Below, in pieces: positions 5,449 to 26,896 of a stretch of 64,000 bases of DNA. A model generated the notes under the pieces. It saw only the letters and a list, made by a program, of their open reading frames with translations, had not been told where the DNA came from and ran no database searches. Each line of letters opens with the position of its first letter. Positions within the stretch are counted from its first letter, which is position 1. The position numbers and the translations under genes were made by a program. Origin of the DNA: Escherichia coli (GTDB taxonomy: Bacteria > Pseudomonadota > Gammaproteobacteria > Enterobacterales > Enterobacteriaceae); NCBI RefSeq assembly GCF_048403405.1, contig NZ_CP183129.1; one strand, given 5' to 3'.

Positions 5449-6798
5449 TTATTTTTCCTGAAGACCGAGTTTTTTCTCCAGATAGTGGATATTAGTACCA
5501 CCATGCTGGAAGTTCTCGTCATTCATGATGCGGATCTGTAGATCAACGTTGGTTTTGATACCGTCGATGATCAGCTCCTGCAGCGCATTCTTCATGCGGG
5601 CAATCGCCACGTCACGGTTTTCACCGTAGCAAATCAGCTTACCGATCATTGAGTCATAGTACGGCGGTACGGTGTAGCCCGCGTAGATATGAGACTCCCA
5701 ACGTACGCCAAAACCGCCAGGTGCGTGGAAACGGGTAATTTTGCCCGGACTTGGCAGGAAGGTGTTCGGATCTTCGGCGTTGATACGACATTCCACCGCA
5801 TGGCCGCGAACGTGAACTTCTTCTTGCTTGATCGACAGCGGTTGACCAGCAGCGATACGCAGCTGTTCTTTGATCAGGTCAACGCCGGTGATCATTTCAG
5901 TAACCGGGTGTTCTACCTGAATACGGGTGTTCATTTCGATGAAATAGAACTCGCCGTTTTCGAACAGGAACTCGAAAGTACCCGCACCGCGATAGCCGAT
6001 ATCAATACATGCTTTAGCGCAACGTTCGCCGATGTAGCGACGCAGTTCCGGGGTAATGCCTGGTGCTGGTGCTTCTTCGACCACTTTCTGGTGGCGGCGC
6101 TGCATGGAGCAGTCACGTTCCGCCAGATAGATAGCGTTGCCCTGACCGTCAGCCAGTACCTGAATCTCGACGTGGCGAGGATTTTCCAGGTATTTCTCCA
6201 TGTAAACCATATCGTTGCTGAAAGCAGCTTTCGCTTCCGCACGGGTCATGGAGATGGATTGTGCCAGTTCAGCGTCGCCGCGCACTACGCGCATACCGCG
6301 ACCGCCGCCGCCGCCGGAGGCTTTGATAATCACCGGATAACCAATGCGTTTAGCAATGGCGCGGTTTTTATCCATATCGTCGCCCAGCGGGCCGTCAGAA
6401 CCCGGTACGCAAGGAACACCCGCTTTTTTCATCGCCGCGATTGCGGATACTTTGTCGCCCATCAGGCGAATGGTTTCTGCTTTCGGGCCGATGAAGATAA
6501 AGCCGGAGCGTTCAACCTGCTCGGCAAAATTGGCGTTCTCGGAGAGGAAGCCGTAACCCGGATGGATTGCTACTGCGCCGGTGATTTCAGCGGCGCTGAT
6601 GATTGCCGGGATGTTCAGATAACTTTTTACTGACGGAGCAGGGCCGATACAGACCGTTTCATCTGCCAGTAATACGTGTTTTAGATCGCGATCCGCGCTG
6701 GAGTGCACAGCGACAGTCTTGATGCCCAGTTCTTTACAGGCACGAAGAATACGCAATGCAATCTCGCCGCGGTTGGCAATAACAATTTTATCCAGCAT
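5449..6798 (-). CDS. accC: biotin carboxylase subunit of acetyl-CoA carboxylase
   Basis: 449 aa from [16 protein letters not shown]; the track ORF extends 13 codons upstream into the accB-accC spacer. Confidence 0.97.
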
Positions 6799-6808
6799 GT
6801 TCGCCTCG

Positions 6809-7279
6809 TTACTCGATGACGACCAGCGGCTCGTCAAATTCTACCGGTTGTCCACTTTCGACCAGAATTGCTTTCACGGTACCGGATTTGTCCGCTTCGA
6901 TCTGGTTCATCATTTTCATGGCTTCAACGATGCACAGGGTATCGCCCACGTTGACTTTCTGACCCACTTCGATGAACGCTTTCGCGTCCGGGCTTGGGGT
7001 GCGGTAGAAAGTACCAACCATCGGGGAACGTACGATGTGACCACTGATTTCCGCTGCTGCTGGCGCTTCCATGGAAGGAACGGTCGCCGGAGCGGCTGCG
7101 TTAGATTGAGCTGGCTGCTGCATCATTGGTGCAGCGTAAGCTTGTTGCATCACAGGGAAACTTGCGGCAGGAGCTGCACGGCTGATGCGTACTGACTCTT
7201 CGCCTTCGGAGATTTCCAGTTCGGAGATGCCTGATTCTTCAACCAGCTCGATCAGTTTTTTAATCTTACGAATATCCAT
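6809..7279 (-). CDS. accB: biotin carboxyl carrier protein
   Basis: 156 aa, [22 protein letters not shown]..., Ala/Pro-rich linker and biotinylation motif EAMKMMN. Confidence 0.97.
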
Positions 7280-8256
7280 GAGTGGGTTCCGTACTCTTTG
7301 TTTAGTGTGATTGTGACAGGCGTTTCACCGCCGTCTGTAAAGCGTATGCCCCGACAGCTGTATGCATAGCGATAAATTCCAGCAGGCCGGGACGCCGGTC
7401 TATTTTGCCCCAGAGTGTCAATGTTAGACTTGACGGACATTGTGCAGCGATCTGCTGCTATCCTCCGGCAAAAAACAAAATATACCTTCGTTGCGCCAAT
7501 GTCACCTTTTCCGCAGCGCAAAAACTGCGTCAGGGAGGACGAGGTCGCACATTATAACGATTTCGTAGCAATTGGCAGCTAAATACTGGTCTTATCAGGG
7601 AAGATAATCAACAGCTAACATGTAAATAACCTTCAACACCGTGTAATTTGCAACAAGCCGCACAATTCACGAAATTAGCGCCATCATCGACGGAACTTCT
7701 TATAACGTAAGGCTAAAAGCTGTAAAGCCAGCCCTGCGAAGATGAGGGGCTGTAATGAGATAATCTTCACAGACCACAAATAATGTAGGGATGCCAGGAT
7801 CGCGACAAGATAGACGACATTACGCAGCGGTTGCTGAGGATTACGCAATTTTCACTGTATCGTCTGGATAGATGTGAATGCTAAAGCACGCAAAATCAAC
7901 CGTCTGACAATGCTCAGCATCAAATACGTTCGAGTGGTTAATTTGTAGGCAAATAAAATCAGATTATTCACCCCATGGTACCAGAAATCAGTAACAGGTT
8001 AAGCGTAGCGTCGCCCAGGCAAAGCACCATAAACCTAACAGGCGACGGAGGCGTATCAATAATGGCTGTTTAGTGGAGTAACAGTGCGCATCAATTTATG
8101 GTCAGTCGAAATCATGACGTTCCAGTTTGGATGATGTTGTACAACTTCATGACCAAGATGTTCGACGAAAGCTGTCCGGCTAACCGCTTTTCCCGTTAAC
8201 CGATTGAATAATGATTTCAAAATGAGTTCCCTCTCTTATTAATCCTTGCTAAATGG

Positions 8257-9231
8257 TTAGTTAACCTTCACCAGCGTGCGACCCTGGATCTGGTTATTAA
8301 TGATGGCCTCGGCAAACTTCGGTGCCTCTGCCAGAGATATCTCTTGTGCCGCCTGGGTATAGAATGATTCCGGTAAATCGGCGACCAATCGCTGCCAGGC
8401 TTGTGCGCGGCGTGTTGGTGGCGTCATCACTGAATCCACCCCCTGTAAACGGACATTACGCAGAATAAATGGCATGACCGTGGTCGGCAGAGTGAAACCA
8501 CCCGCCAGACCACAGGCCGCCACGCAGCCGCCGTAATTCATTTGCGCCAGCACTTTTGCCAGCACTTTGTCGCCAACGGTGTCAATTGCCCCAGCCCAGA
8601 CTTGTTTTTCCAGAGGACGGGATTCGGCAAACTCATCGCGAGGGAGAATACGGCTGGCTCCTAAACTTTTCAGATATTCATGGGTACTTTCGCGACCAGA
8701 AACGGCAACGACCTGATAACCCAACTTATGCAGCAGCGCCACGGCGGTACTGCCGACGCCACCACTGGCACCCGTCACGACAATCTCCCCATCCTGCGGG
8801 CGAACACCGGCATCTTCCAGCGCCATCACACACAGCATGGCGGTAAAACCGGCAGTACCGATAATCATTGCTTTACGCGCGTCCAGCCCTTGCGGCATGG
8901 CAACCAGCCAGTCACCTTTCACTCGCGCCTGCTCCGCCAGCCCCCCCCAGTGGTTTTCACCAACGCCCCAGCCAGTGAGTAACACCTCCTGACCGGCATG
9001 AAAACGCGGATCTTCGCTGGTGCGTACAGTTCCGGCAAAATCGATCCCAGGAATCATCGGAAAATTACGGATGATTTTTCCCTTACCGGTAATTGCCAGC
9101 GCATCTTTGTAGTTCAGGCTCGACCAATGAACATCAACCGTGACATCGCCCTCCGGCAGGCAACTTTCGTCCAGAGTCTTTACCGATGCGAGAGTTTTGC
9201 CGTCCTGCTGTTCTAAAAGTAACGCCTGCAT
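8257..9231 (-). CDS. acuI: acrylyl-CoA reductase / MDR-family NADPH oxidoreductase
   Basis: 324 aa MDR-family translation (former yhdH); position between accB and csrD. Confidence 0.9.
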   Translation of the reverse strand: MQALLLEQQDGKTLASVKTLDESCLPEGDVTVDVHWSSLNYKDALAITGKGKIIRNFPMIPGIDFAGTVRTSEDPRFHAGQEVLLTGWGVGENHWGGLAEQARVKGDWLVAMPQGLDARKAMIIGTAGFTAMLCVMALEDAGVRPQDGEIVVTGASGGVGSTAVALLHKLGYQVVAVSGRESTHEYLKSLGASRILPRDEFAESRPLEKQVWAGAIDTVGDKVLAKVLAQMNYGGCVAACGLAGGFTLPTTVMPFILRNVRLQGVDSVMTPPTRRAQAWQRLVADLPESFYTQAAQEISLAEAPKFAEAIINNQIQGRTLVKVN

Positions 9232-9382
9232 AAGTGGTCCTCATGTGCATGATGGATTGGAAAATAATTTCTGAAGACTATACTCGCTAATGGAAAAGCA
9301 AAGCCGATGAAGCGCAATAAATTGCGAGATAAATCTGATTTGCTAGTATGCCCGCTTCCTCACTATCGGAGTTAACACAAGG

Positions 9383-11323
9383 ATGAGATTAACGACGAAA
9401 TTTTCGGCCTTTGTTACGCTGCTCACCGGGTTAACAATTTTTGTGACTTTGCTGGGCTGTTCGCTAAGTTTCTACAACGCCATTCAGTATAAGTTTAGTC
9501 ATCGCGTTCAGGCGGTGGCGACGGCGATTGATACCCACCTTGTGTCGAATGACTTCAGCGCATTAAGGCCACAAATTACCGAATTAATGATGTCAGCAGA
9601 TATCGTTCGTGTAGACCTGCTGCATGGTGATAAACAGGTTTATACCCTCGCCAGAAATGGTAGTTATCGTCCGGTTGGCACCAGCGATCTGTTTCGCGAA
9701 CTGAGCGTTCCGTTGATAAAGCATCCGGGGATGTCGCTGCGTCTGGTTTATCAGGATCCGATGGGCAACTATTTCCATTCGTTGATGACCACCGCGCCGC
9801 TCACGGGGGCGATTGGCTTTATCATTCTTATGCTCTTCCTGGCGGTACGCTGGTTACAACGGCAACTTGCCGGGCAAGAATTGCTGGAAACCCGGGCTAC
9901 TCGTATCTTAAACGGTGAGCGTGGCTCTAATGTGTTGGGAACCATCTATGAATGGCCGCCCAGAACCAGCAGTGCGCTGGATACGCTGCTTCGTGAAATT
10001 CAGAACGCACGCGAACAACACAGCCGTCTTGATACGCTGATCCGCTCTTATGCCGCCCAGGACATGAAAACCGGCCTCAATAACCGACTCTTTTTCGATA
10101 ATCAGTTAGCAACGTTACTGGAAGATCAAGAGAAAGTAGGTACCCACGGGATCGTGATGATGATTCGTCTGCCGGATTTCAATATGTTGAGTGATACCTG
10201 GGGGCACAGCCAGGTTGAAGAACAGTTCTTCTCTCTGACGAATCTGCTATCGACATTTATGATGCGCTACCCTGGCGCACTGCTGGCGCGTTACCACCGC
10301 AGTGATTTTGCTGTGCTGTTACCGCACCGGACGTTAAAAGAGGCAGAGAGCATCGCCGGTCAGTTAATCAAAGCCGTCGATACCTTGCCGAACAATAAAA
10401 TGCTCGATCGCGACGATATGATCCACATTGGTATCTGCGCCTGGCGTAGTGGTCAGGATACCGAGCAGGTAATGGAACATGCAGAGTCTGCCACGCGTAA
10501 TGCGGGATTGCAGGGCGGCAATAGCTGGGCTATTTACGATGACTCGTTGCCTGAAAAAGGACGCGGTAATGTTCGCTGGCGTACGCTTATCGAGCAAATG
10601 CTGAGTCGCGGCGGCCCGCGCCTTTATCAAAAACCGGCGGTTACTCGCGAAGGTCAGGTTCATCATCGCGAACTCATGTGCCGCATCTTCGATGGTAACG
10701 AAGAGGTTAGCTCGGCGGAGTATATGCCGATGGTCTTGCAGTTTGGCTTATCGGAAGAGTATGACCGCCTGCAAATCAGCCGTCTTATTCCACTATTGCG
10801 TTACTGGCCTGAGGAAAATCTGGCGATTCAGGTTACCGTTGAGTCGCTGATTCGCCCGCGTTTTCAGCGTTGGCTGCGCGATACGTTAATGCAATGTGAA
10901 AGATCGCAACGAAAACGCATAATTATTGAACTTGCAGAGGCCGATGTAGGTCAACATATCAGTCGTTTACAACCTGTTATTCGTTTAGTGAATGCTTTAG
11001 GGGTACGGGTAGCCGTCAACCAGGCTGGTTTGACGCTGGTAAGCACCAGTTGGATCAAAGAACTTAATGTTGAGTTACTCAAGCTCCATCCGGGGCTGGT
11101 CAGAAACATTGAGAAGCGAACGGAGAACCAGCTGCTGGTTCAAAGCCTGGTGGAAGCCTGCTCCGGGACCAGCACCCAGGTTTACGCCACCGGCGTGCGT
11201 TCGCGAAGCGAGTGGCAGACCCTGATTCAGCGCGGTGTTACAGGTGGGCAAGGGGATTTTTTCGCGTCCTCACAGCCACTTGATACTAACGTGAAAAAAT
11301 ATTCACAAAGATACTCGGTTTAA
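9383..11323 (+). CDS. csrD: RNase E specificity factor CsrD (degenerate GGDEF-EAL protein)
   Basis: 646 aa, N-terminal TM segment, immediately upstream of mreB. Confidence 0.92.
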   Translation: MRLTTKFSAFVTLLTGLTIFVTLLGCSLSFYNAIQYKFSHRVQAVATAIDTHLVSNDFSALRPQITELMMSADIVRVDLLHGDKQVYTLARNGSYRPVGTSDLFRELSVPLIKHPGMSLRLVYQDPMGNYFHSLMTTAPLTGAIGFIILMLFLAVRWLQRQLAGQELLETRATRILNGERGSNVLGTIYEWPPRTSSALDTLLREIQNAREQHSRLDTLIRSYAAQDMKTGLNNRLFFDNQLATLLEDQEKVGTHGIVMMIRLPDFNMLSDTWGHSQVEEQFFSLTNLLSTFMMRYPGALLARYHRSDFAVLLPHRTLKEAESIAGQLIKAVDTLPNNKMLDRDDMIHIGICAWRSGQDTEQVMEHAESATRNAGLQGGNSWAIYDDSLPEKGRGNVRWRTLIEQMLSRGGPRLYQKPAVTREGQVHHRELMCRIFDGNEEVSSAEYMPMVLQFGLSEEYDRLQISRLIPLLRYWPEENLAIQVTVESLIRPRFQRWLRDTLMQCERSQRKRIIIELAEADVGQHISRLQPVIRLVNALGVRVAVNQAGLTLVSTSWIKELNVELLKLHPGLVRNIEKRTENQLLVQSLVEACSGTSTQVYATGVRSRSEWQTLIQRGVTGGQGDFFASSQPLDTNVKKYSQRYSV

Positions 11324-11501
11324 CCTGCCGTTTAATCCGTTTTCACGTAGAATAACGCGCGCTGCGTCTCATGGGAGTGTGCTTGTCTGCTCGCCAGATT
11401 GTTGCAGCACATATGCAGATGAATGACCTTACGCGGTTGCAAACAGGCGAGGAATGCTGCTGATGCATTAAGCCTTTCTGGACTCAGGCAGAGATTTGTA
11501 A

Positions 11502-12671
<1,170 letters not shown>

Positions 12672-14336: not shown

Positions 14337-14930
14337 ATGACTTCTCTGTATTTAGCTTCCGGTTCTCCGCGTCGTCAGGAGTTACTTGCGCAACTTGGCG
14401 TAACCTTTGAACGTATTGTTACGGGCATTGAGGAGCAGCGTCAGCCGCAGGAGAGCGCGCAGCAGTATGTTGTGCGTCTGGCGCGCGAGAAAGCACAGGC
14501 GGGTGTCGCGCAAACGGCGCAGGATCTCCCGGTGCTGGGTGCGGATACTATCGTTATCCTGAACGGAGAAGTGCTGGAGAAACCGCGCGACGCAGAGCAT
14601 GCGGTGCAGATGTTGCGCAAATTATCGGGTCAGACCCATCAGGTAATGACGGCAGTGGCGTTGGCTGACAGCCAGCACATTCTCGATTGCCTGGTGGTCA
14701 CCGATGTGACTTTCAGAACGTTAACAGACGAAGACATCGCGGGCTATGTCGCCAGCGGTGAACCGTTAGATAAAGCAGGTGCATACGGTATTCAGGGGCT
14801 GGGTGGCTGTTTTGTCAGGAAGATAAATGGCAGCTATCACGCCGTAGTCGGCTTACCGCTGGTTGAAACGTATGAATTATTAAGTAATTTTAACGCACTG
14901 CGTGAGAAAAGGGATAAACATGACGGCTGA
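14337..14930 (+). CDS. yhdE: Maf-like nucleotide pyrophosphatase
   Basis: 197 aa, [21 protein letters not shown] (Maf signature). Confidence 0.93.
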
Positions 14931-16389
14931 ATTGTTGGTAAACGTAACGCCTTCGGAAACGCGAGTGGCGTATATTGATGGCGGTATTCTGCAGGAAATT
15001 CATATTGAACGTGAGGCGCGACGCGGAATAGTAGGCAATATCTACAAGGGTCGTGTAAGTCGTGTACTTCCGGGTATGCAGGCGGCTTTTGTAGATATTG
15101 GGCTGGATAAAGCCGCGTTTCTTCATGCATCTGACATCATGCCGCACACCGAATGTGTGGCGGGTGAAGAACAAAAGCAATTCACGGTGCGCGACATCTC
15201 GGAGCTGGTCCGTCAGGGGCAAGATCTGATGGTGCAGGTGGTGAAAGATCCACTTGGCACTAAGGGTGCGCGCCTGACCACGGATATCACGCTGCCTTCT
15301 CGCTATTTGGTATTTATGCCAGGGGCTTCTCACGTTGGGGTTTCCCAACGAATTGAAAGCGAATCAGAACGTGAACGCCTGAAAAAAGTGGTCGCAGAGT
15401 ATTGCGACGAGCAGGGCGGGTTTATCATCCGTACCGCAGCGGAAGGGGTTGGCGAGGCTGAACTGGCCTCCGATGCCGCTTATCTGAAACGCGTCTGGAC
15501 CAAAGTTATGGAGCGTAAAAAGCGCCCGCAGACTCGTTATCAGCTGTACGGCGAACTGGCGCTGGCGCAGCGTGTTCTGCGTGATTTCGCCGACGCCGAA
15601 CTCGACCGCATTCGCGTTGACTCACGCCTGACTTACGAAGCATTGCTGGAGTTTACCTCGGAGTACATTCCCGAGATGACCAGCAAGCTGGAGCATTACA
15701 CCGGACGCCAGCCGATTTTCGATCTCTTTGATGTCGAAAACGAAATTCAGCGAGCGCTGGAACGCAAAGTAGAACTGAAATCCGGTGGCTATCTGATTAT
15801 CGACCAGACCGAAGCGATGACCACCGTAGACATCAATACCGGGGCGTTTGTCGGTCATCGCAATCTGGACGACACCATTTTCAATACCAATATTGAAGCG
15901 ACGCAGGCTATCGCTCGCCAGTTACGGTTGCGTAATCTGGGCGGGATTATCATTATTGATTTCATCGATATGAATAATGAAGATCACCGCCGCCGCGTGC
16001 TGCACTCGCTGGAGCAGGCGTTGAGCAAAGACCGGGTGAAAACCAGCGTTAATGGTTTTTCGGCGCTGGGGCTGGTGGAGATGACGCGTAAACGCACCCG
16101 CGAAAGCATTGAGCACGTACTATGTAACGAATGCCCAACCTGCCACGGTCGCGGAACGGTGAAAACCGTGGAAACGGTATGCTATGAAATCATGCGCGAG
16201 ATTGTTCGTGTACACCATGCTTATGATTCCGACCGTTTCCTGGTCTATGCTTCTCCGGCAGTAGCTGAAGCCTTGAAAGGCGAAGAGTCACACTCGCTGG
16301 CGGAAGTGGAAATTTTCGTTGGCAAACAGGTTAAAGTACAAATTGAACCGCTCTATAACCAGGAGCAGTTTGACGTCGTAATGATGTAA
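14920..16389 (+). CDS. rng: ribonuclease G
   Basis: 489 aa from [17 protein letters not shown]; overlaps the yhdE stop by 11 bp. Confidence 0.95.
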
Positions 16390-20397: not shown

Positions 20398-21858
<1,461 letters not shown>

Positions 21859-24245: not shown

Positions 24246-26213
24246 ATGGGTATTTTCTCCATTGCTAACCAACATATTCGCTTTGCGGTAAAACTGGCGA
24301 CCGCCATTGTACTGGCGCTGTTTGTTGGCTTTCACTTCCAGCTGGAAACGCCACGCTGGGCGGTACTGACAGCGGCGATTGTTGCCGCCGGTCCGGCCTT
24401 TGCTGCGGGAGGTGAACCGTATTCTGGCGCTATTCGCTATCGTGGCTTTTTGCGCATCATCGGCACATTTATTGGCTGTATTGCCGGACTGGTGATCATT
24501 ATTGCGATGATCCGTGCACCATTATTGATGATTCTGGTGTGCTGTATCTGGGCCGGTTTTTGTACCTGGATATCCTCGCTGGTACGAATAGAAAACTCGT
24601 ATGCGTGGGGGCTGGCCGGTTATACCGCGCTGATCATTGTGATCACCATTCAGCCGGAACCATTGCTTACGCCGCAGTTTGCCGTCGAACGTTGTAGCGA
24701 GATCGTTATCGGTATTGTGTGTGCCATTATGGCGGATTTGCTCTTTTCTCCGCGATCGATCAAACAAGAAGTGGATCGAGAGCTGGAAAGTTTGCTGGTC
24801 GCGCAATATCAATTAATGCAACTCTGTATCAAGCATGGCGATGGTGAAGTTGTCGATAAAGCCTGGGGCGATCTGGTGCGACGCACCACGGCGTTACAAG
24901 GTATGCGCAGCAACCTGAATATGGAATCTTCCCGCTGGGCGCGGGCCAATCGACGTTTAAAAGCGATTAATACGCTATCGCTGACGCTGATTACACAATC
25001 CTGCGAAACTTATCTTATTCAGAATACGCGCCCGGAATTGATCACTGATACTTTCCGCGAATTTTTTGACACGCCGGTAGAAACCGCGCAGGACGTCCAC
25101 AAGCAGCTCAAACGCCTGCGGAGAGTTATCGCCTGGACTGGGGAACGGGAAACGCCTGTCACCATTTATAGCTGGGTCGCGGCGGCAACGCGTTATCAGC
25201 TTCTCAAGCGCGGCGTTATCAGTAACACAAAAATCAACGCCACCGAAGAAGAGATCCTGCAAGGCGAACCGGAAGTCAAAGTAGAGTCAGCCGAACGTCA
25301 TCATGCGATGGTTAACTTCTGGCGAACCACACTTTCCTGCATTCTGGGGACGCTTTTCTGGCTGTGGACGGGCTGGACTTCCGGCAGTGGTGCAATGGTG
25401 ATGATTGCGGTAGTGACGTCACTGGCAATGCGTTTGCCGAATCCACGCATGGTGGCGATCGACTTTATCTACGGGACGCTGGCAGCGCTGCCGTTAGGGC
25501 TGCTCTACTTTTTGGTGATTATCCCTAATACTCAACAGAGCATGTTGCTGCTGTGTATTAGCCTGGCAGTGCTGGGATTCTTCCTCGGTATAGAAGTACA
25601 GAAACGGCGACTGGGCTCGATGGGGGCGCTGGCCAGCACCATAAATATTATCGTGCTGGATAACCCGATGACTTTCCATTTCAGTCAGTTTCTCGACAGC
25701 GCATTAGGGCAAATCGTCGGCTGTGTGCTCGCGTTCACCGTTATTTTGCTGGTGCGGGATAAATCGCGCGACAGGACTGGACGTGTACTGCTTAATCAGT
25801 TCGTTTCTGCTGCTGTTTCCGCGATGACTACCAATGTGGCACGTCGTAAAGAGAACCACCTCCCGGCACTTTATCAGCAGCTGTTTTTGCTGATGAATAA
25901 GTTCCCAGGGGATTTGCCGAAATTTCGCCTGGCGCTGACGATGATTATCGCGCACCAGCGCCTGCGTGATGCGCCGATCCCGGTTAACGAGGATTTATCG
26001 GCGTTTCACCGACAAATGCGCCGCACAGCAGACCATGTGATATCTGCCCGTAGCGATGATAAACGTCGTCGGTACTTTGGCCAGTTGCTGGAAGAACTTG
26101 AAATCTACCAGGAAAAGCTACGCATCTGGCAAGCGCCACCGCAGGTGACGGAACCGGTTCATCGGCTGGCGGGGATGCTCCATAAGTATCAACATGCGTT
26201 GACCGATAGTTAA
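24246..26213 (+). CDS. aaeB: aromatic carboxylic acid efflux pump subunit AaeB
   Basis: 655-aa polytopic membrane protein of the aromatic acid exporter family. Confidence 0.95.
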
Positions 26214-26216
26214 GTC

Positions 26217-26246
26217 AAAACCGACGCCAAAAGCGTCGGTTTTTTC
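26217..26246 (+). terminator. rho-independent terminator of aaeXAB
   Basis: AAAACCGACGC-CAAAA-GCGTCGGTTTTTT directly after the aaeB stop. Confidence 0.8.
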
Positions 26247-26304
26247 ATGGCTATACTTAGCGATGAACGGCAGAACTCGCCGCGAAACGTGACGGTGGCA
26301 ACAG

Positions 26305-26577
26305 ATGAATATTTATACCTTTGATTTTGATGAGATTGAGAGTCAGGAGGATTTTTATCGCGACTTCAGCCAAGCCTTTGGTCTGGCGAAAGATAAGGTA
26401 CGCGATCTCGACTCACTATGGGATGTGTTAATGAACGATGTCCTGCCGCTACCACTTGAGATTGAATTTGTTCATCTGGGAGAGAAAACGCGTCGCCGTT
26501 TTGGCGCGTTAATATTGCTGTTTGATGAGGCAGAGGAAGAGTTGGAAGGGCATTTGCGTTTTAATGTTCGTCATTAG
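26305..26577 (+). CDS. yhcO: barstar-like ribonuclease-inhibitor family protein
   Basis: 90 aa, acidic, [27 protein letters not shown]; no barnase-like partner visible nearby. Confidence 0.85.
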
Positions 26578-26632
26578 CGCAAAAAAAAGCCCCCGAACCG
26601 AGGGCAATATCGTCGGACAAGACGATGAGGGT

Positions 26633-26896
26633 TTATTTGTACAGTTCAGCCGTAGCGTGCCAGGTGTCACCGCTACGAGCTTCCGTAATCTGGTAGGCCG
26701 TTGCGCCTTTCTCTTCTGCTTTTTTGTTCAGCATTTCACGCATATCCATTGGCGAAGACGCCACACCACTTACGGATACGGTCCCGATTGCTTCACGATT
26801 TTGTGCTTGTGCAGCATCAATGGAGTCGGCAGCGAATGCACCGAAAGATAGAACAGAAAGTACGCTTAATGCAGCAACAGTGGTTTTGATTTTCAT
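26633..26896 (-). CDS. yhcN: DUF1471 (YhcN/BhsA family) periplasmic stress protein
   Basis: 87 aa from MKIKTTVAALSVLSVLSFGAFA (signal peptide); the track ORF is 17 codons longer. Confidence 0.88.
   Translation of the reverse strand: MKIKTTVAALSVLSVLSFGAFAADSIDAAQAQNREAIGTVSVSGVASSPMDMREMLNKKAEEKGATAYQITEARSGDTWHATAELYK

Follow-up and report, generated by a model that had tools for sequence, protein, structure and literature searches.

The stretch of DNA analyzed here (the window) comprises 64,000 nucleotides of Escherichia coli contig NZ_CP183129.1 (RefSeq assembly GCF_048403405.1), and all coordinates of the window are counted from its first letter. Around yhcO, the genes yhdP, tldD, aaeR (minus strand), aaeX, aaeA, aaeB, yhcO, yhcN (minus strand), argR (minus strand), and mdh follow one another in that order. 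The gene in question is yhcO, which encodes a small acidic protein of the barstar family of ribonuclease (RNase) inhibitors. Comparison with relatives suggests, with high confidence, that an ancestral RNase-barstar operon lost its RNase gene by deletion in the ancestor of the Enterobacteriaceae-type genomes and that yhcO is what remains of it, the inhibitor gene. The gene, its flanks, and the landmarks needed for that comparison are as follows.

26305..26577, plus strand: yhcO coding sequence, 90 amino acids (aa) plus stop, from ATG to stop (open reading frame list, Pfam, PDB, fold, and RefSeq)
26214..26304, plus strand: aaeB-yhcO spacer of 91 bp, the site of a barnase-like RNase gene of ~450 bp in relatives (gene orders at 91 loci)
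24246..26213, plus strand: aaeB, the upstream flank, efflux-pump subunit, no toxin gene (Pfam FUSC, 544 bits; RefSeq)
26633..26896, minus strand: yhcN, the convergent downstream flank, periplasmic DUF1471 stress protein, no toxin gene (NCBIfam YhcN equivalog, 149 bits; RefSeq)
20413..21858, plus strand: tldD, synteny anchor to the RNase-barstar operons of other Enterobacterales (comparison of loci; annotation)

The yhcO gene and its product

A first-pass annotation, made from the letters of the DNA alone, had described YhcO as a 90-aa acidic protein of barstar character and had proposed structure and profile comparison as the means of refuting that description; in these comparisons YhcO came out barstar-like. 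The protein contains 21 aspartate and glutamate residues versus 10 lysine and arginine residues and has an isoelectric point of 4.48. Residues 1 to 81 match the Pfam Barstar family (PF01337) with 38.6 bits (E value, 1.1e-9; gathering cutoff, 23.4 bits), and no NCBIfam model matches the protein. YhcO is identical at 89 of 90 positions to PDB entry 2CX6, a structure of E. coli YhcO released under the name "ribonuclease inhibitor Barstar," and the structure of the Salmonella orthologue is available as PDB entry 5F4C. The AlphaFold2 model of YhcO (predicted local distance difference test score, 95.6) has strands at residues 2 to 7, 51 to 56, and 84 to 88 and helices at residues 14 to 24, 35 to 43, and 60 to 79, and the barstar α/β fold (β1-α1-α2-β2-α3/4-β3) is present in it. 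The model matches 2CX6 with a template modeling (TM) score of 0.99 and the barstar chains of Bacillus amyloliquefaciens with TM scores of 0.78 to 0.82 and a root mean square deviation of ~2 Å, the latter being its sole significant non-self matches in the PDB.

The direct phmmer similarity of YhcO to the Bacillus barstar chains is weak (E values of 0.06 to 0.5, ~20% identity), as might be expected of a small acidic protein that resembled barstar by chance. We give this explanation a negligible probability, and we regard it as ruled out by the profile score above the curated Pfam cutoff, by the match in fold, and by the gene pairing in relatives, where an unbroken series of homologues leads from YhcO to barstars paired with genuine barnase homologues.

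Public databases already record the gene, its family, its structure, and the absence of a partner. RefSeq labels the gene "yhcO: barstar family protein," the region is found in 5,425 of 5,426 complete E. coli genomes, and a 427-bp stretch around yhcO is 100% identical to that of many E. coli strains. The Yersinia pestis orthologue is annotated as "probable ribonuclease inhibitor YPO3690." Some database entries for YhcO have an N-terminal extension (105 to 137 aa), and in three metagenome entries a LytTR match (PF04397) is fused to Barstar; since RefSeq and both PDB entries have the 90-aa form, the extended or fused entries are probably start-codon or assembly artifacts.

The earlier statement that neither flank encodes a barnase-like toxin is borne out by the FUSC and YhcN equivalog matches of aaeB and yhcN. 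The neighbors of yhcO are housekeeping and stress genes, its site is fixed across genera, and there is no Rhs, CdiA, or type VI secretion system (T6SS) locus or immunity array among them. The rng gene for RNase G lies ~10 kb upstream of yhcO (window positions 14902 to 16389) in the conserved block yhdE-rng-yhdP-tldD. RNase G was considered as a partner of YhcO and rejected, as its RNase family is unrelated and as genomes that retain the barnase-like gene also have the yhdP side of this region, which adjoins rng in E. coli; the proximity of rng to the barstar gene looks coincidental.

RNase-barstar gene pairs in relatives and the probable loss of the RNase gene

A search of 1.8 billion representative proteins retrieved 111 relatives of YhcO at an E value of ≤0.001, and all full-length relatives from this protein search carry the motif FG-x-NLDALWD-x-x-TG. 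The nearest non-orthologous relatives (44 to 45% identity) are encoded directly downstream of a gene for a PF00545 "Ribonuclease." Upstream of this pair are yhdP, a CN-hydrolase gene, and tldD, the anchor shared with E. coli; in two cases the pair comes immediately after them, and in the third two other genes lie in between. A locus scan with the pattern [FKY][GV]x[ND]LD[AS]LWD, limited to one genome per species, yielded 80 loci, 67 outside the orphan group and 13 of the Enterobacteriaceae type, which were annotated with marker proteins and a hidden Markov model of the RNase.

Outside the Enterobacteriaceae-type group, 64 of the 67 loci have an intact RNase gene in front of the barstar gene, and the stop codon of the RNase gene lies −17 to +32 nt, mostly 3 to 5 nt, from the barstar start. 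The RNases of these pairs match barnase and binase with E values of ~4e-38, and barnase residues K27, D54, R59, E73, R83, R87, H102, and Y103 are kept in every one of the 64. A hydrophobic, export-like segment at the N terminus of 60 of the 64 suggests that the paired RNases are probably exported. Gene orders at these loci and at those of the orphans are as follows (parentheses mark a gene that is present in only some genomes).

Morganellaceae and Budviciaceae (Xenorhabdus, Photorhabdus, Providencia, Proteus, Arsenophonus, Budvicia): yhdP, CN-hydrolase, tldD, RNase, barstar
Yersiniaceae and several Hafniaceae (Serratia, Yersinia, Rouxiella, Ewingella): aaeR, aaeXAB, (aldehyde dehydrogenase), RNase, barstar, darP, pmbA
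Enterobacteriaceae (Escherichia, Salmonella, Citrobacter, Enterobacter, Lelliottia, Kosakonia, Klebsiella) and Erwinia mallotivora: tldD, aaeR, aaeXAB, (aldehyde dehydrogenase), yhcO, yhcN, argR, mdh, no RNase

The pair of Budvicia lies ~1.9 kb after tldD. Loci of the Yersiniaceae type have tldD upstream where the retrieved flank extends far enough, and in Hafnia alvei and Hafnia paralvei only the aldehyde dehydrogenase gene (aldH) falls within that flank. Despite having the same upstream genes, all 13 Enterobacteriaceae-type loci lack the RNase gene. At six Enterobacteriaceae-type loci, the aaeB/aldH-yhcO spacers were searched for an RNase remnant by permissive tblastn with three RNases as queries; the matches were all short noise, several of them on the opposite strand.

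Neighbor joining places the 13 orphans in a single clade, recovered in 298 of 300 bootstraps, next to the syntenic Yersiniaceae pairs. Because the orphans are a single clade, all without the RNase and with shared upstream genes, a single ancient deletion of the RNase gene is the most parsimonious history. The RNase gene would have been cleanly deleted in the ancestor of the Enterobacteriaceae (and Erwinia mallotivora), and the inhibitor gene would have stayed. Three further loci are independent and younger cases of RNase decay, with an RNase pseudogene beside an intact barstar gene. In Edwardsiella ictaluri the RNase gene is truncated at its 5' end, with residues 87 to 148 left (locus L073, positions 7774 to 7992); in Hafnia psychrotolerans residues 12 to 51 and 120 to 149 remain around an internal deletion (locus L054, positions ~7795 to 7993); and in the Arsenophonus endosymbiont of Aphis craccivora the reading frame is split (locus L045, positions 7496 to 7994). 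RNase loss with persistence of the barstar gene is thus seen once anciently and three times recently, a clean natural example of the asymmetry expected of toxin/inhibitor pairs, in which the toxin gene can be lost first and the inhibitor can persist under selection.

The loci differ in several other ways. The barstar gene is separated from aaeB by an aldehyde dehydrogenase gene (PF00171) in Yersinia, Citrobacter amalonaticus, Enterobacter, Lelliottia, Kosakonia, and Erwinia mallotivora (positions ~6400 to 7960 in loci L015 to L021, L023, and L038, to be compared with window positions 26214 to 26304) but not in Escherichia, Salmonella arizonae, Klebsiella oxytoca, and Serratia; this site has therefore seen a second gain or loss of a gene. 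Most other Enterobacteriaceae loci have two tandem yhcN-like (DUF1471) genes after yhcO (loci L014 to L022 and L038, positions ~8330 to 9060), and both Escherichia loci have a single yhcN. Kosakonia cowanii has ~4.3 kb of additional DNA separating yhcO from the yhcN genes (locus L023, positions 8270 to 12590), a distance of ~60 bp in other genera. Downstream of the barstar gene, darP and pmbA are found in many RNase-containing genomes (loci L001 to L004, L024 to L041, and similar ones), and in Morganellaceae such as Xenorhabdus and Photorhabdus, with tldD directly upstream, the partner-protease genes tldD and pmbA bracket the RNase-barstar pair. The E. coli locus has a rearrangement breakpoint directly after yhcO, and yhcN-argR-mdh is found there instead. 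Erwiniaceae-type genomes (Pantoea, Mixta, Winslowiella, Erwinia endophytica, and a record titled Enterobacter cancerogenus M004; eight loci) have a more distant RNase-barstar pair, with 31 to 41% identity to YhcO, at a nonsyntenic site, and in three of them a weak AaeA/HlyD-like gene is found near the pair.

Searches for a partner RNase in E. coli and in mobile DNA agree with the first-pass observation that no cognate RNase is visible beside yhcO, as does the gene order of the 13 Enterobacteriaceae-type loci. No relative of barnase, binase, RNase Sa, or RNase T1 was found in the six-frame translation of the 64-kb window (best E value, 0.6). The barnase query sequence is supported by the way it aligns with the RNases found, and the barstar sequence by its match to PDB chains. 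The RNase part of a Serratia RNase-barstar DNA query had no match in 5,426 E. coli genomes in a DNA-level search that needs roughly ≥65% identity and is not sensitive, while the barstar part of the same query, serving as an internal control, matched yhcO in 4,986 of them. No barnase-type RNase relatives were found on Escherichia, Salmonella, or Klebsiella plasmids in a plasmid collection, in which the RNase matches were from Bacillus, Clostridium, two minor single hits, and mislabeled Proteus chromosomes, and none were found in 50,697 phage records. Neither YhcO nor the RNase matched any PADLOC defense model. The relatives of YhcO in the plasmid collection are nearly all chromosomes or large chromosomal fragments; chromosomal genes show up as plasmid hits because whole chromosomes are filed there, such as the 4- to 5-Mb "plasmid" records NZ_OL790811.1, NZ_OL790696.1, NZ_CP134663.1, and others (Proteus mirabilis, E. 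coli, and Klebsiella).

The RNase-binding interface, selection, and regulation

The segments of yhcO that correspond to the RNase-binding residues of barstar are the following.

26386..26448, plus strand: codons for residues 28 to 48, the loop and helix α2 that plug the RNase active site in barstar (alignment of barstar and 80 homologues)
26527..26541, plus strand: codons for E75 to E79 (EAEEE), aligned with barstar E76 and E80, invariant in all 13 orphans

Barstar residues D35, D39, E76, and E80 matter for RNase binding and cost stability. The plug residues D36, W39, D40, E75, and E79 of YhcO, which correspond to barstar D35, W38, D39, E76, and E80, are kept in 13 of 13 orphans, and the D, W, and D positions of D36-x-x-W39-D40 are also invariant in the 67 paired homologues. 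The DxxxD signature of the Imm-Barstar family (PMC3482391) is present in YhcO as D36-S-L-W-D40.

The remaining family interface positions (F/Y30, G31, N33, A36, and T42 in barstar numbering) are not kept in the YhcO clade. Among the 21 columns conserved in ≥90% of the 67 paired homologues, 4 differ in the orphan clade, with F replaced by K31 (13/13), G by V32 (13/13), N by D34 (11/13), and A by S37 (13/13). All four columns are in the RNase-blocking loop and helix (Fisher P value, 0.021), although this test is weakened because the retrieval pattern had preselected those columns. The pattern leaves the linkage between motif state and RNase presence unforced, and the linkage seen is perfect; pattern-free searches show the same two motif states. 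Because the replacing residues are themselves invariant, they seem to reflect a new constraint rather than drift, and since four interface positions are fixed in the new state, YhcO probably no longer has the specificity that it had for its lost cognate RNase.

Over 43 informative pairs of orphans, the ratio of nonsynonymous to synonymous substitutions (dN/dS) reaches a maximum of 0.275, and its median is 0.126, compared with 0.108 for the paired barstar genes of Yersiniaceae and Hafniaceae; these values are approximate, because synonymous sites between genera are saturated. A nonsaturated pair of Escherichia species gives 0.055. The gene has been intact across at least seven genera since the single ancient RNase loss. 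By these measures of sequence change, yhcO is under purifying selection and is not decaying, and the first-pass view of an immunity-like gene that is kept without its toxin is supported by the dN/dS values of ~0.05 to 0.13 and by its near-universal presence in E. coli genomes.

The putative expression signals of yhcO are the following.

26217..26245, plus strand: intrinsic-terminator-like hairpin with U-run, closing the aaeXAB operon (RNA fold; conserved in relatives)
26251..26259, plus strand: CTATACTTA, σS-type extended −10 element, putative yhcO promoter, 46 nt before the ATG (unique and conserved)
26294..26298, plus strand: GGTGG, putative weak Shine-Dalgarno-like sequence, 6 nt before the ATG (inspection of the sequence)
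26608..26627, plus strand: terminator-like hairpin in the convergent yhcO/yhcN spacer (consensus scan; weak, the spacer fold z score of −1.8 being not significant)

The aaeXAB hairpin folds with −16.7 kcal/mol (z score, −5.1; none of 200 shuffles was as good). It was missed by a consensus terminator scan, since its stem absorbs part of the U-run, and was revealed by folding. Its position after aaeB indicates that yhcO is transcriptionally separate from aaeB. The element CTATACTTA, which we take to be a close match to the σS extended −10 consensus, occurs once in the window (0.09 expected), and the terminator followed by this element is conserved in Klebsiella oxytoca and in one further Escherichia species. 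A scan for σ70 promoters found none upstream of yhcO. The predicted arrangement of yhcO today is therefore monocistronic, after the aaeB terminator and behind a σS-type −10 element, in agreement with the published 214-fold RpoS dependence of yhcO in stationary phase (PMC2907692). It has also been reported that yhcO is among the genes listed as rising upon rapid acid treatment (PMC2270276) and that its mRNA is >2-fold higher upon overexpression of LldR (PMC10272880). The two LldR-box-like sequences of the "yhcO" peak of the latter study, obtained by genomic systematic evolution of ligands by exponential enrichment, are at window positions 26376 to 26392 and 26441 to 26457, both inside the yhcO coding sequence and not upstream of it.

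Proposed function, alternatives, and comparison with known systems

We propose that YhcO may be a cytoplasmic, stationary-phase-induced inhibitor that would bind 1:1 to the basic active-site cleft of an RNase-type enzyme, into which helix α2 and the preceding loop would fit as they do in barstar. Its most likely targets would be barnase-family RNase domains injected by competitors, for example, Rhs/T6SS toxins or toxins of contact-dependent inhibition (CDI), since no such enzyme of E. coli itself was found in the window or, at the DNA level, in E. coli genomes. The interpretation in the first-pass annotation, protection against a toxin encoded elsewhere or delivered by competitors, is thus supported in part. 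Delivery of an RNase toxin by competitors is plausible because Salmonella pathogenicity island 6 (SPI-6) contains Rhs effectors with a Ribonuclease domain together with Barstar immunity genes (PMC10469887). A barstar-domain protein is among the predicted CDI immunity proteins of Pseudomonas (PMC4725963), and Imm-Barstar has been linked to Tox-Barnase and also to Ntox21 (PMC3482391). Taken by itself, this foreign-toxin mechanism is a tentative proposal; the combined account, in which yhcO arose by RNase deletion and YhcO inhibits foreign injected RNase domains, is the one toward which we lean, with modest confidence.

A number of observations weigh against that account. Hartley reportedly found in 1988 that barnase could not be cloned in E. 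coli without barstar. If barnase kills E. coli without barstar, then chromosomal yhcO gives growing cells no protection from this enzyme, an RNase ~55% identical to the lost one; low σS-dependent expression of yhcO in growing cells could explain the missing protection. The four positions with K31, V32, D34, and S37 are invariant in all 67 paired homologues and changed in the orphans, the conserved Thr (barstar T42) is variable in the orphans, and one residue is inserted after helix α2; the four-position change fits a simple generic immunity only partly. Paired orthologues score above YhcO on the Barstar profile (53 to 58 versus 38.6 bits). Relative to AaeB, the orphans evolve at a rate of 1.54 versus 0.92 for the paired genes, that is, ~1.7 times faster, so that constraint is somewhat relaxed but clearly present. 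The gene is core, vertically inherited, and low in diversity, unlike typical orphan immunity genes in variable islands, and no barnase-type toxin of E. coli itself was found in the window or in the DNA-level genome search. The papers found on yhcO are expression lists and one study of a regulator; in the literature searched there is no report of YhcO inhibiting or binding an RNase, and a 2023 study still lists the function of yhcO as unknown (PMC10272880).

The changed interface would also fit a different outcome, in which YhcO no longer inhibits barnase-type RNases and was instead retuned to an endogenous partner in cells that are in stationary phase or under acid stress; a different nuclease or a basic protein that binds nucleic acids would be examples. 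The fixation of the new residues (complete for K31, V32, and S37 and nearly so for D34) despite saturated synonymous sites speaks for such a new constraint, as does the confinement of all replacements to the partner-binding loop and helix; yhcO has also acquired its own putative σS-type promoter and is a member of the RpoS and acid response, and native yhcO is not known to rescue barnase toxicity. Yet no candidate partner was found in the searches or in the literature searched, in which the only mention of barstar in Enterobacteriaceae was at the annotation level, for Klebsiella. The invariance of the acidic plug residues, given their role in barstar, suggests that the target has a basic cleft like that of barnase, and the clustering test has the weakness noted above. 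We consider such neofunctionalization doubtful, and its more specific form, in which a YhcO rebuilt at K31, V32, D34, and S37 would be a σS-induced inhibitor or regulator of an endogenous target such as a stationary-phase nuclease, unlikely. If it were true, YhcO would be an antitoxin domesticated into a housekeeping regulator.

Conservation of YhcO with its inhibitory residues would likewise be expected if the E. coli genome had a cognate barnase-like RNase gene at some other site and the cell were protected by YhcO against its own enzyme. This is improbable, as no RNase relative was found in the window, in the E. coli genomes at the DNA level, on Enterobacteriaceae plasmids, or in phages, as the RNase and barstar genes are adjacent in every paired genome, and as E. 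coli K-12 has, to our knowledge, no RNase of the PF00545 family. The faster evolution of the orphans relative to AaeB and the lack of a phenotype in the literature found would suit a functionless relic that has merely not been lost yet, but the dN/dS values, none of which exceeds the above maximum, the persistence of an intact gene in all of these genera and in all but one of the E. coli genomes, and its strong, specific regulation make a neutral relic very improbable. The account that we favor remains the RNase-deletion origin with inhibition of foreign RNase domains.

In yhcO, the best-studied bacterium has a strongly RpoS-dependent gene with a structure solved twice and no function assigned. 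Descent from a barnase/barstar pair narrows the question to the RNases of relatives such as Serratia, Yersinia, Hafnia, and Proteus, RNase toxins injected by T6SS or CDI, or a new partner. An explicit history of the RNase deletion and the clade-specific interface change were not found in the literature searched; both are ordinary results of comparative genomics and do not amount to a new kind of system. The overall result is modest and largely confirmatory and sharpens an open question about a y gene.

Compared with the barstar of B. amyloliquefaciens (PDB entries 1BRS and 1A19), YhcO has the same three-strand, four-helix α/β fold, size, and acidity, and barstar D35, W38, D39, E76, E80, and P48 align with YhcO D36, W39, D40, E75, E79, and P50. 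YhcO differs from barstar in its overall sequence (~20% identity), in having K31, V32, D34, and S37 in place of Y30, G31, N33, and A36, and in the insertion after helix α2. In addition, yhcO has no adjacent RNase gene and has its own putative σS-type promoter, rather than being expressed alongside a secreted RNase. The RNase-barstar loci of Yersiniaceae and several Hafniaceae are orthologous to yhcO by position (aaeR-aaeXAB, with or without aldH, and tldD where reached), and the Serratia and Yersinia barstars have 51 to 57% identity to YhcO, with a nearly identical C-terminal half. The pairs of Yersiniaceae, Hafniaceae, and Morganellaceae consist of an intact, probably exported RNase and a barstar with F-G-x-N-L-D-A-L-W-D-x-x-T-G, from which the yhcO clade differs, and the downstream genes are darP-pmbA in the Yersinia type and yhcN-argR-mdh at yhcO.

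In CDI, T6SS, and bacteriocin systems, orphan immunity genes are, like yhcO, inhibitor genes kept without a toxin and are thought to counter non-self toxins. Such genes are usually strain variable, often arrayed near toxin loci, and gained by recombination. In contrast, yhcO would have been orphaned by deletion of its partner and is vertically inherited across a whole family. The Imm-Barstar proteins of polymorphic toxin systems (PMC3482391) and of the Salmonella SPI-6 pairs (PMC10469887) have PF01337 and DxxxD in common with YhcO, and their assigned role is the neutralization of a barnase-type RNase domain, as is proposed here for YhcO. Their genes directly follow the toxin gene in variable islands, whereas yhcO, as part of the core genome, occupies a fixed chromosomal site and has no toxin gene beside it.

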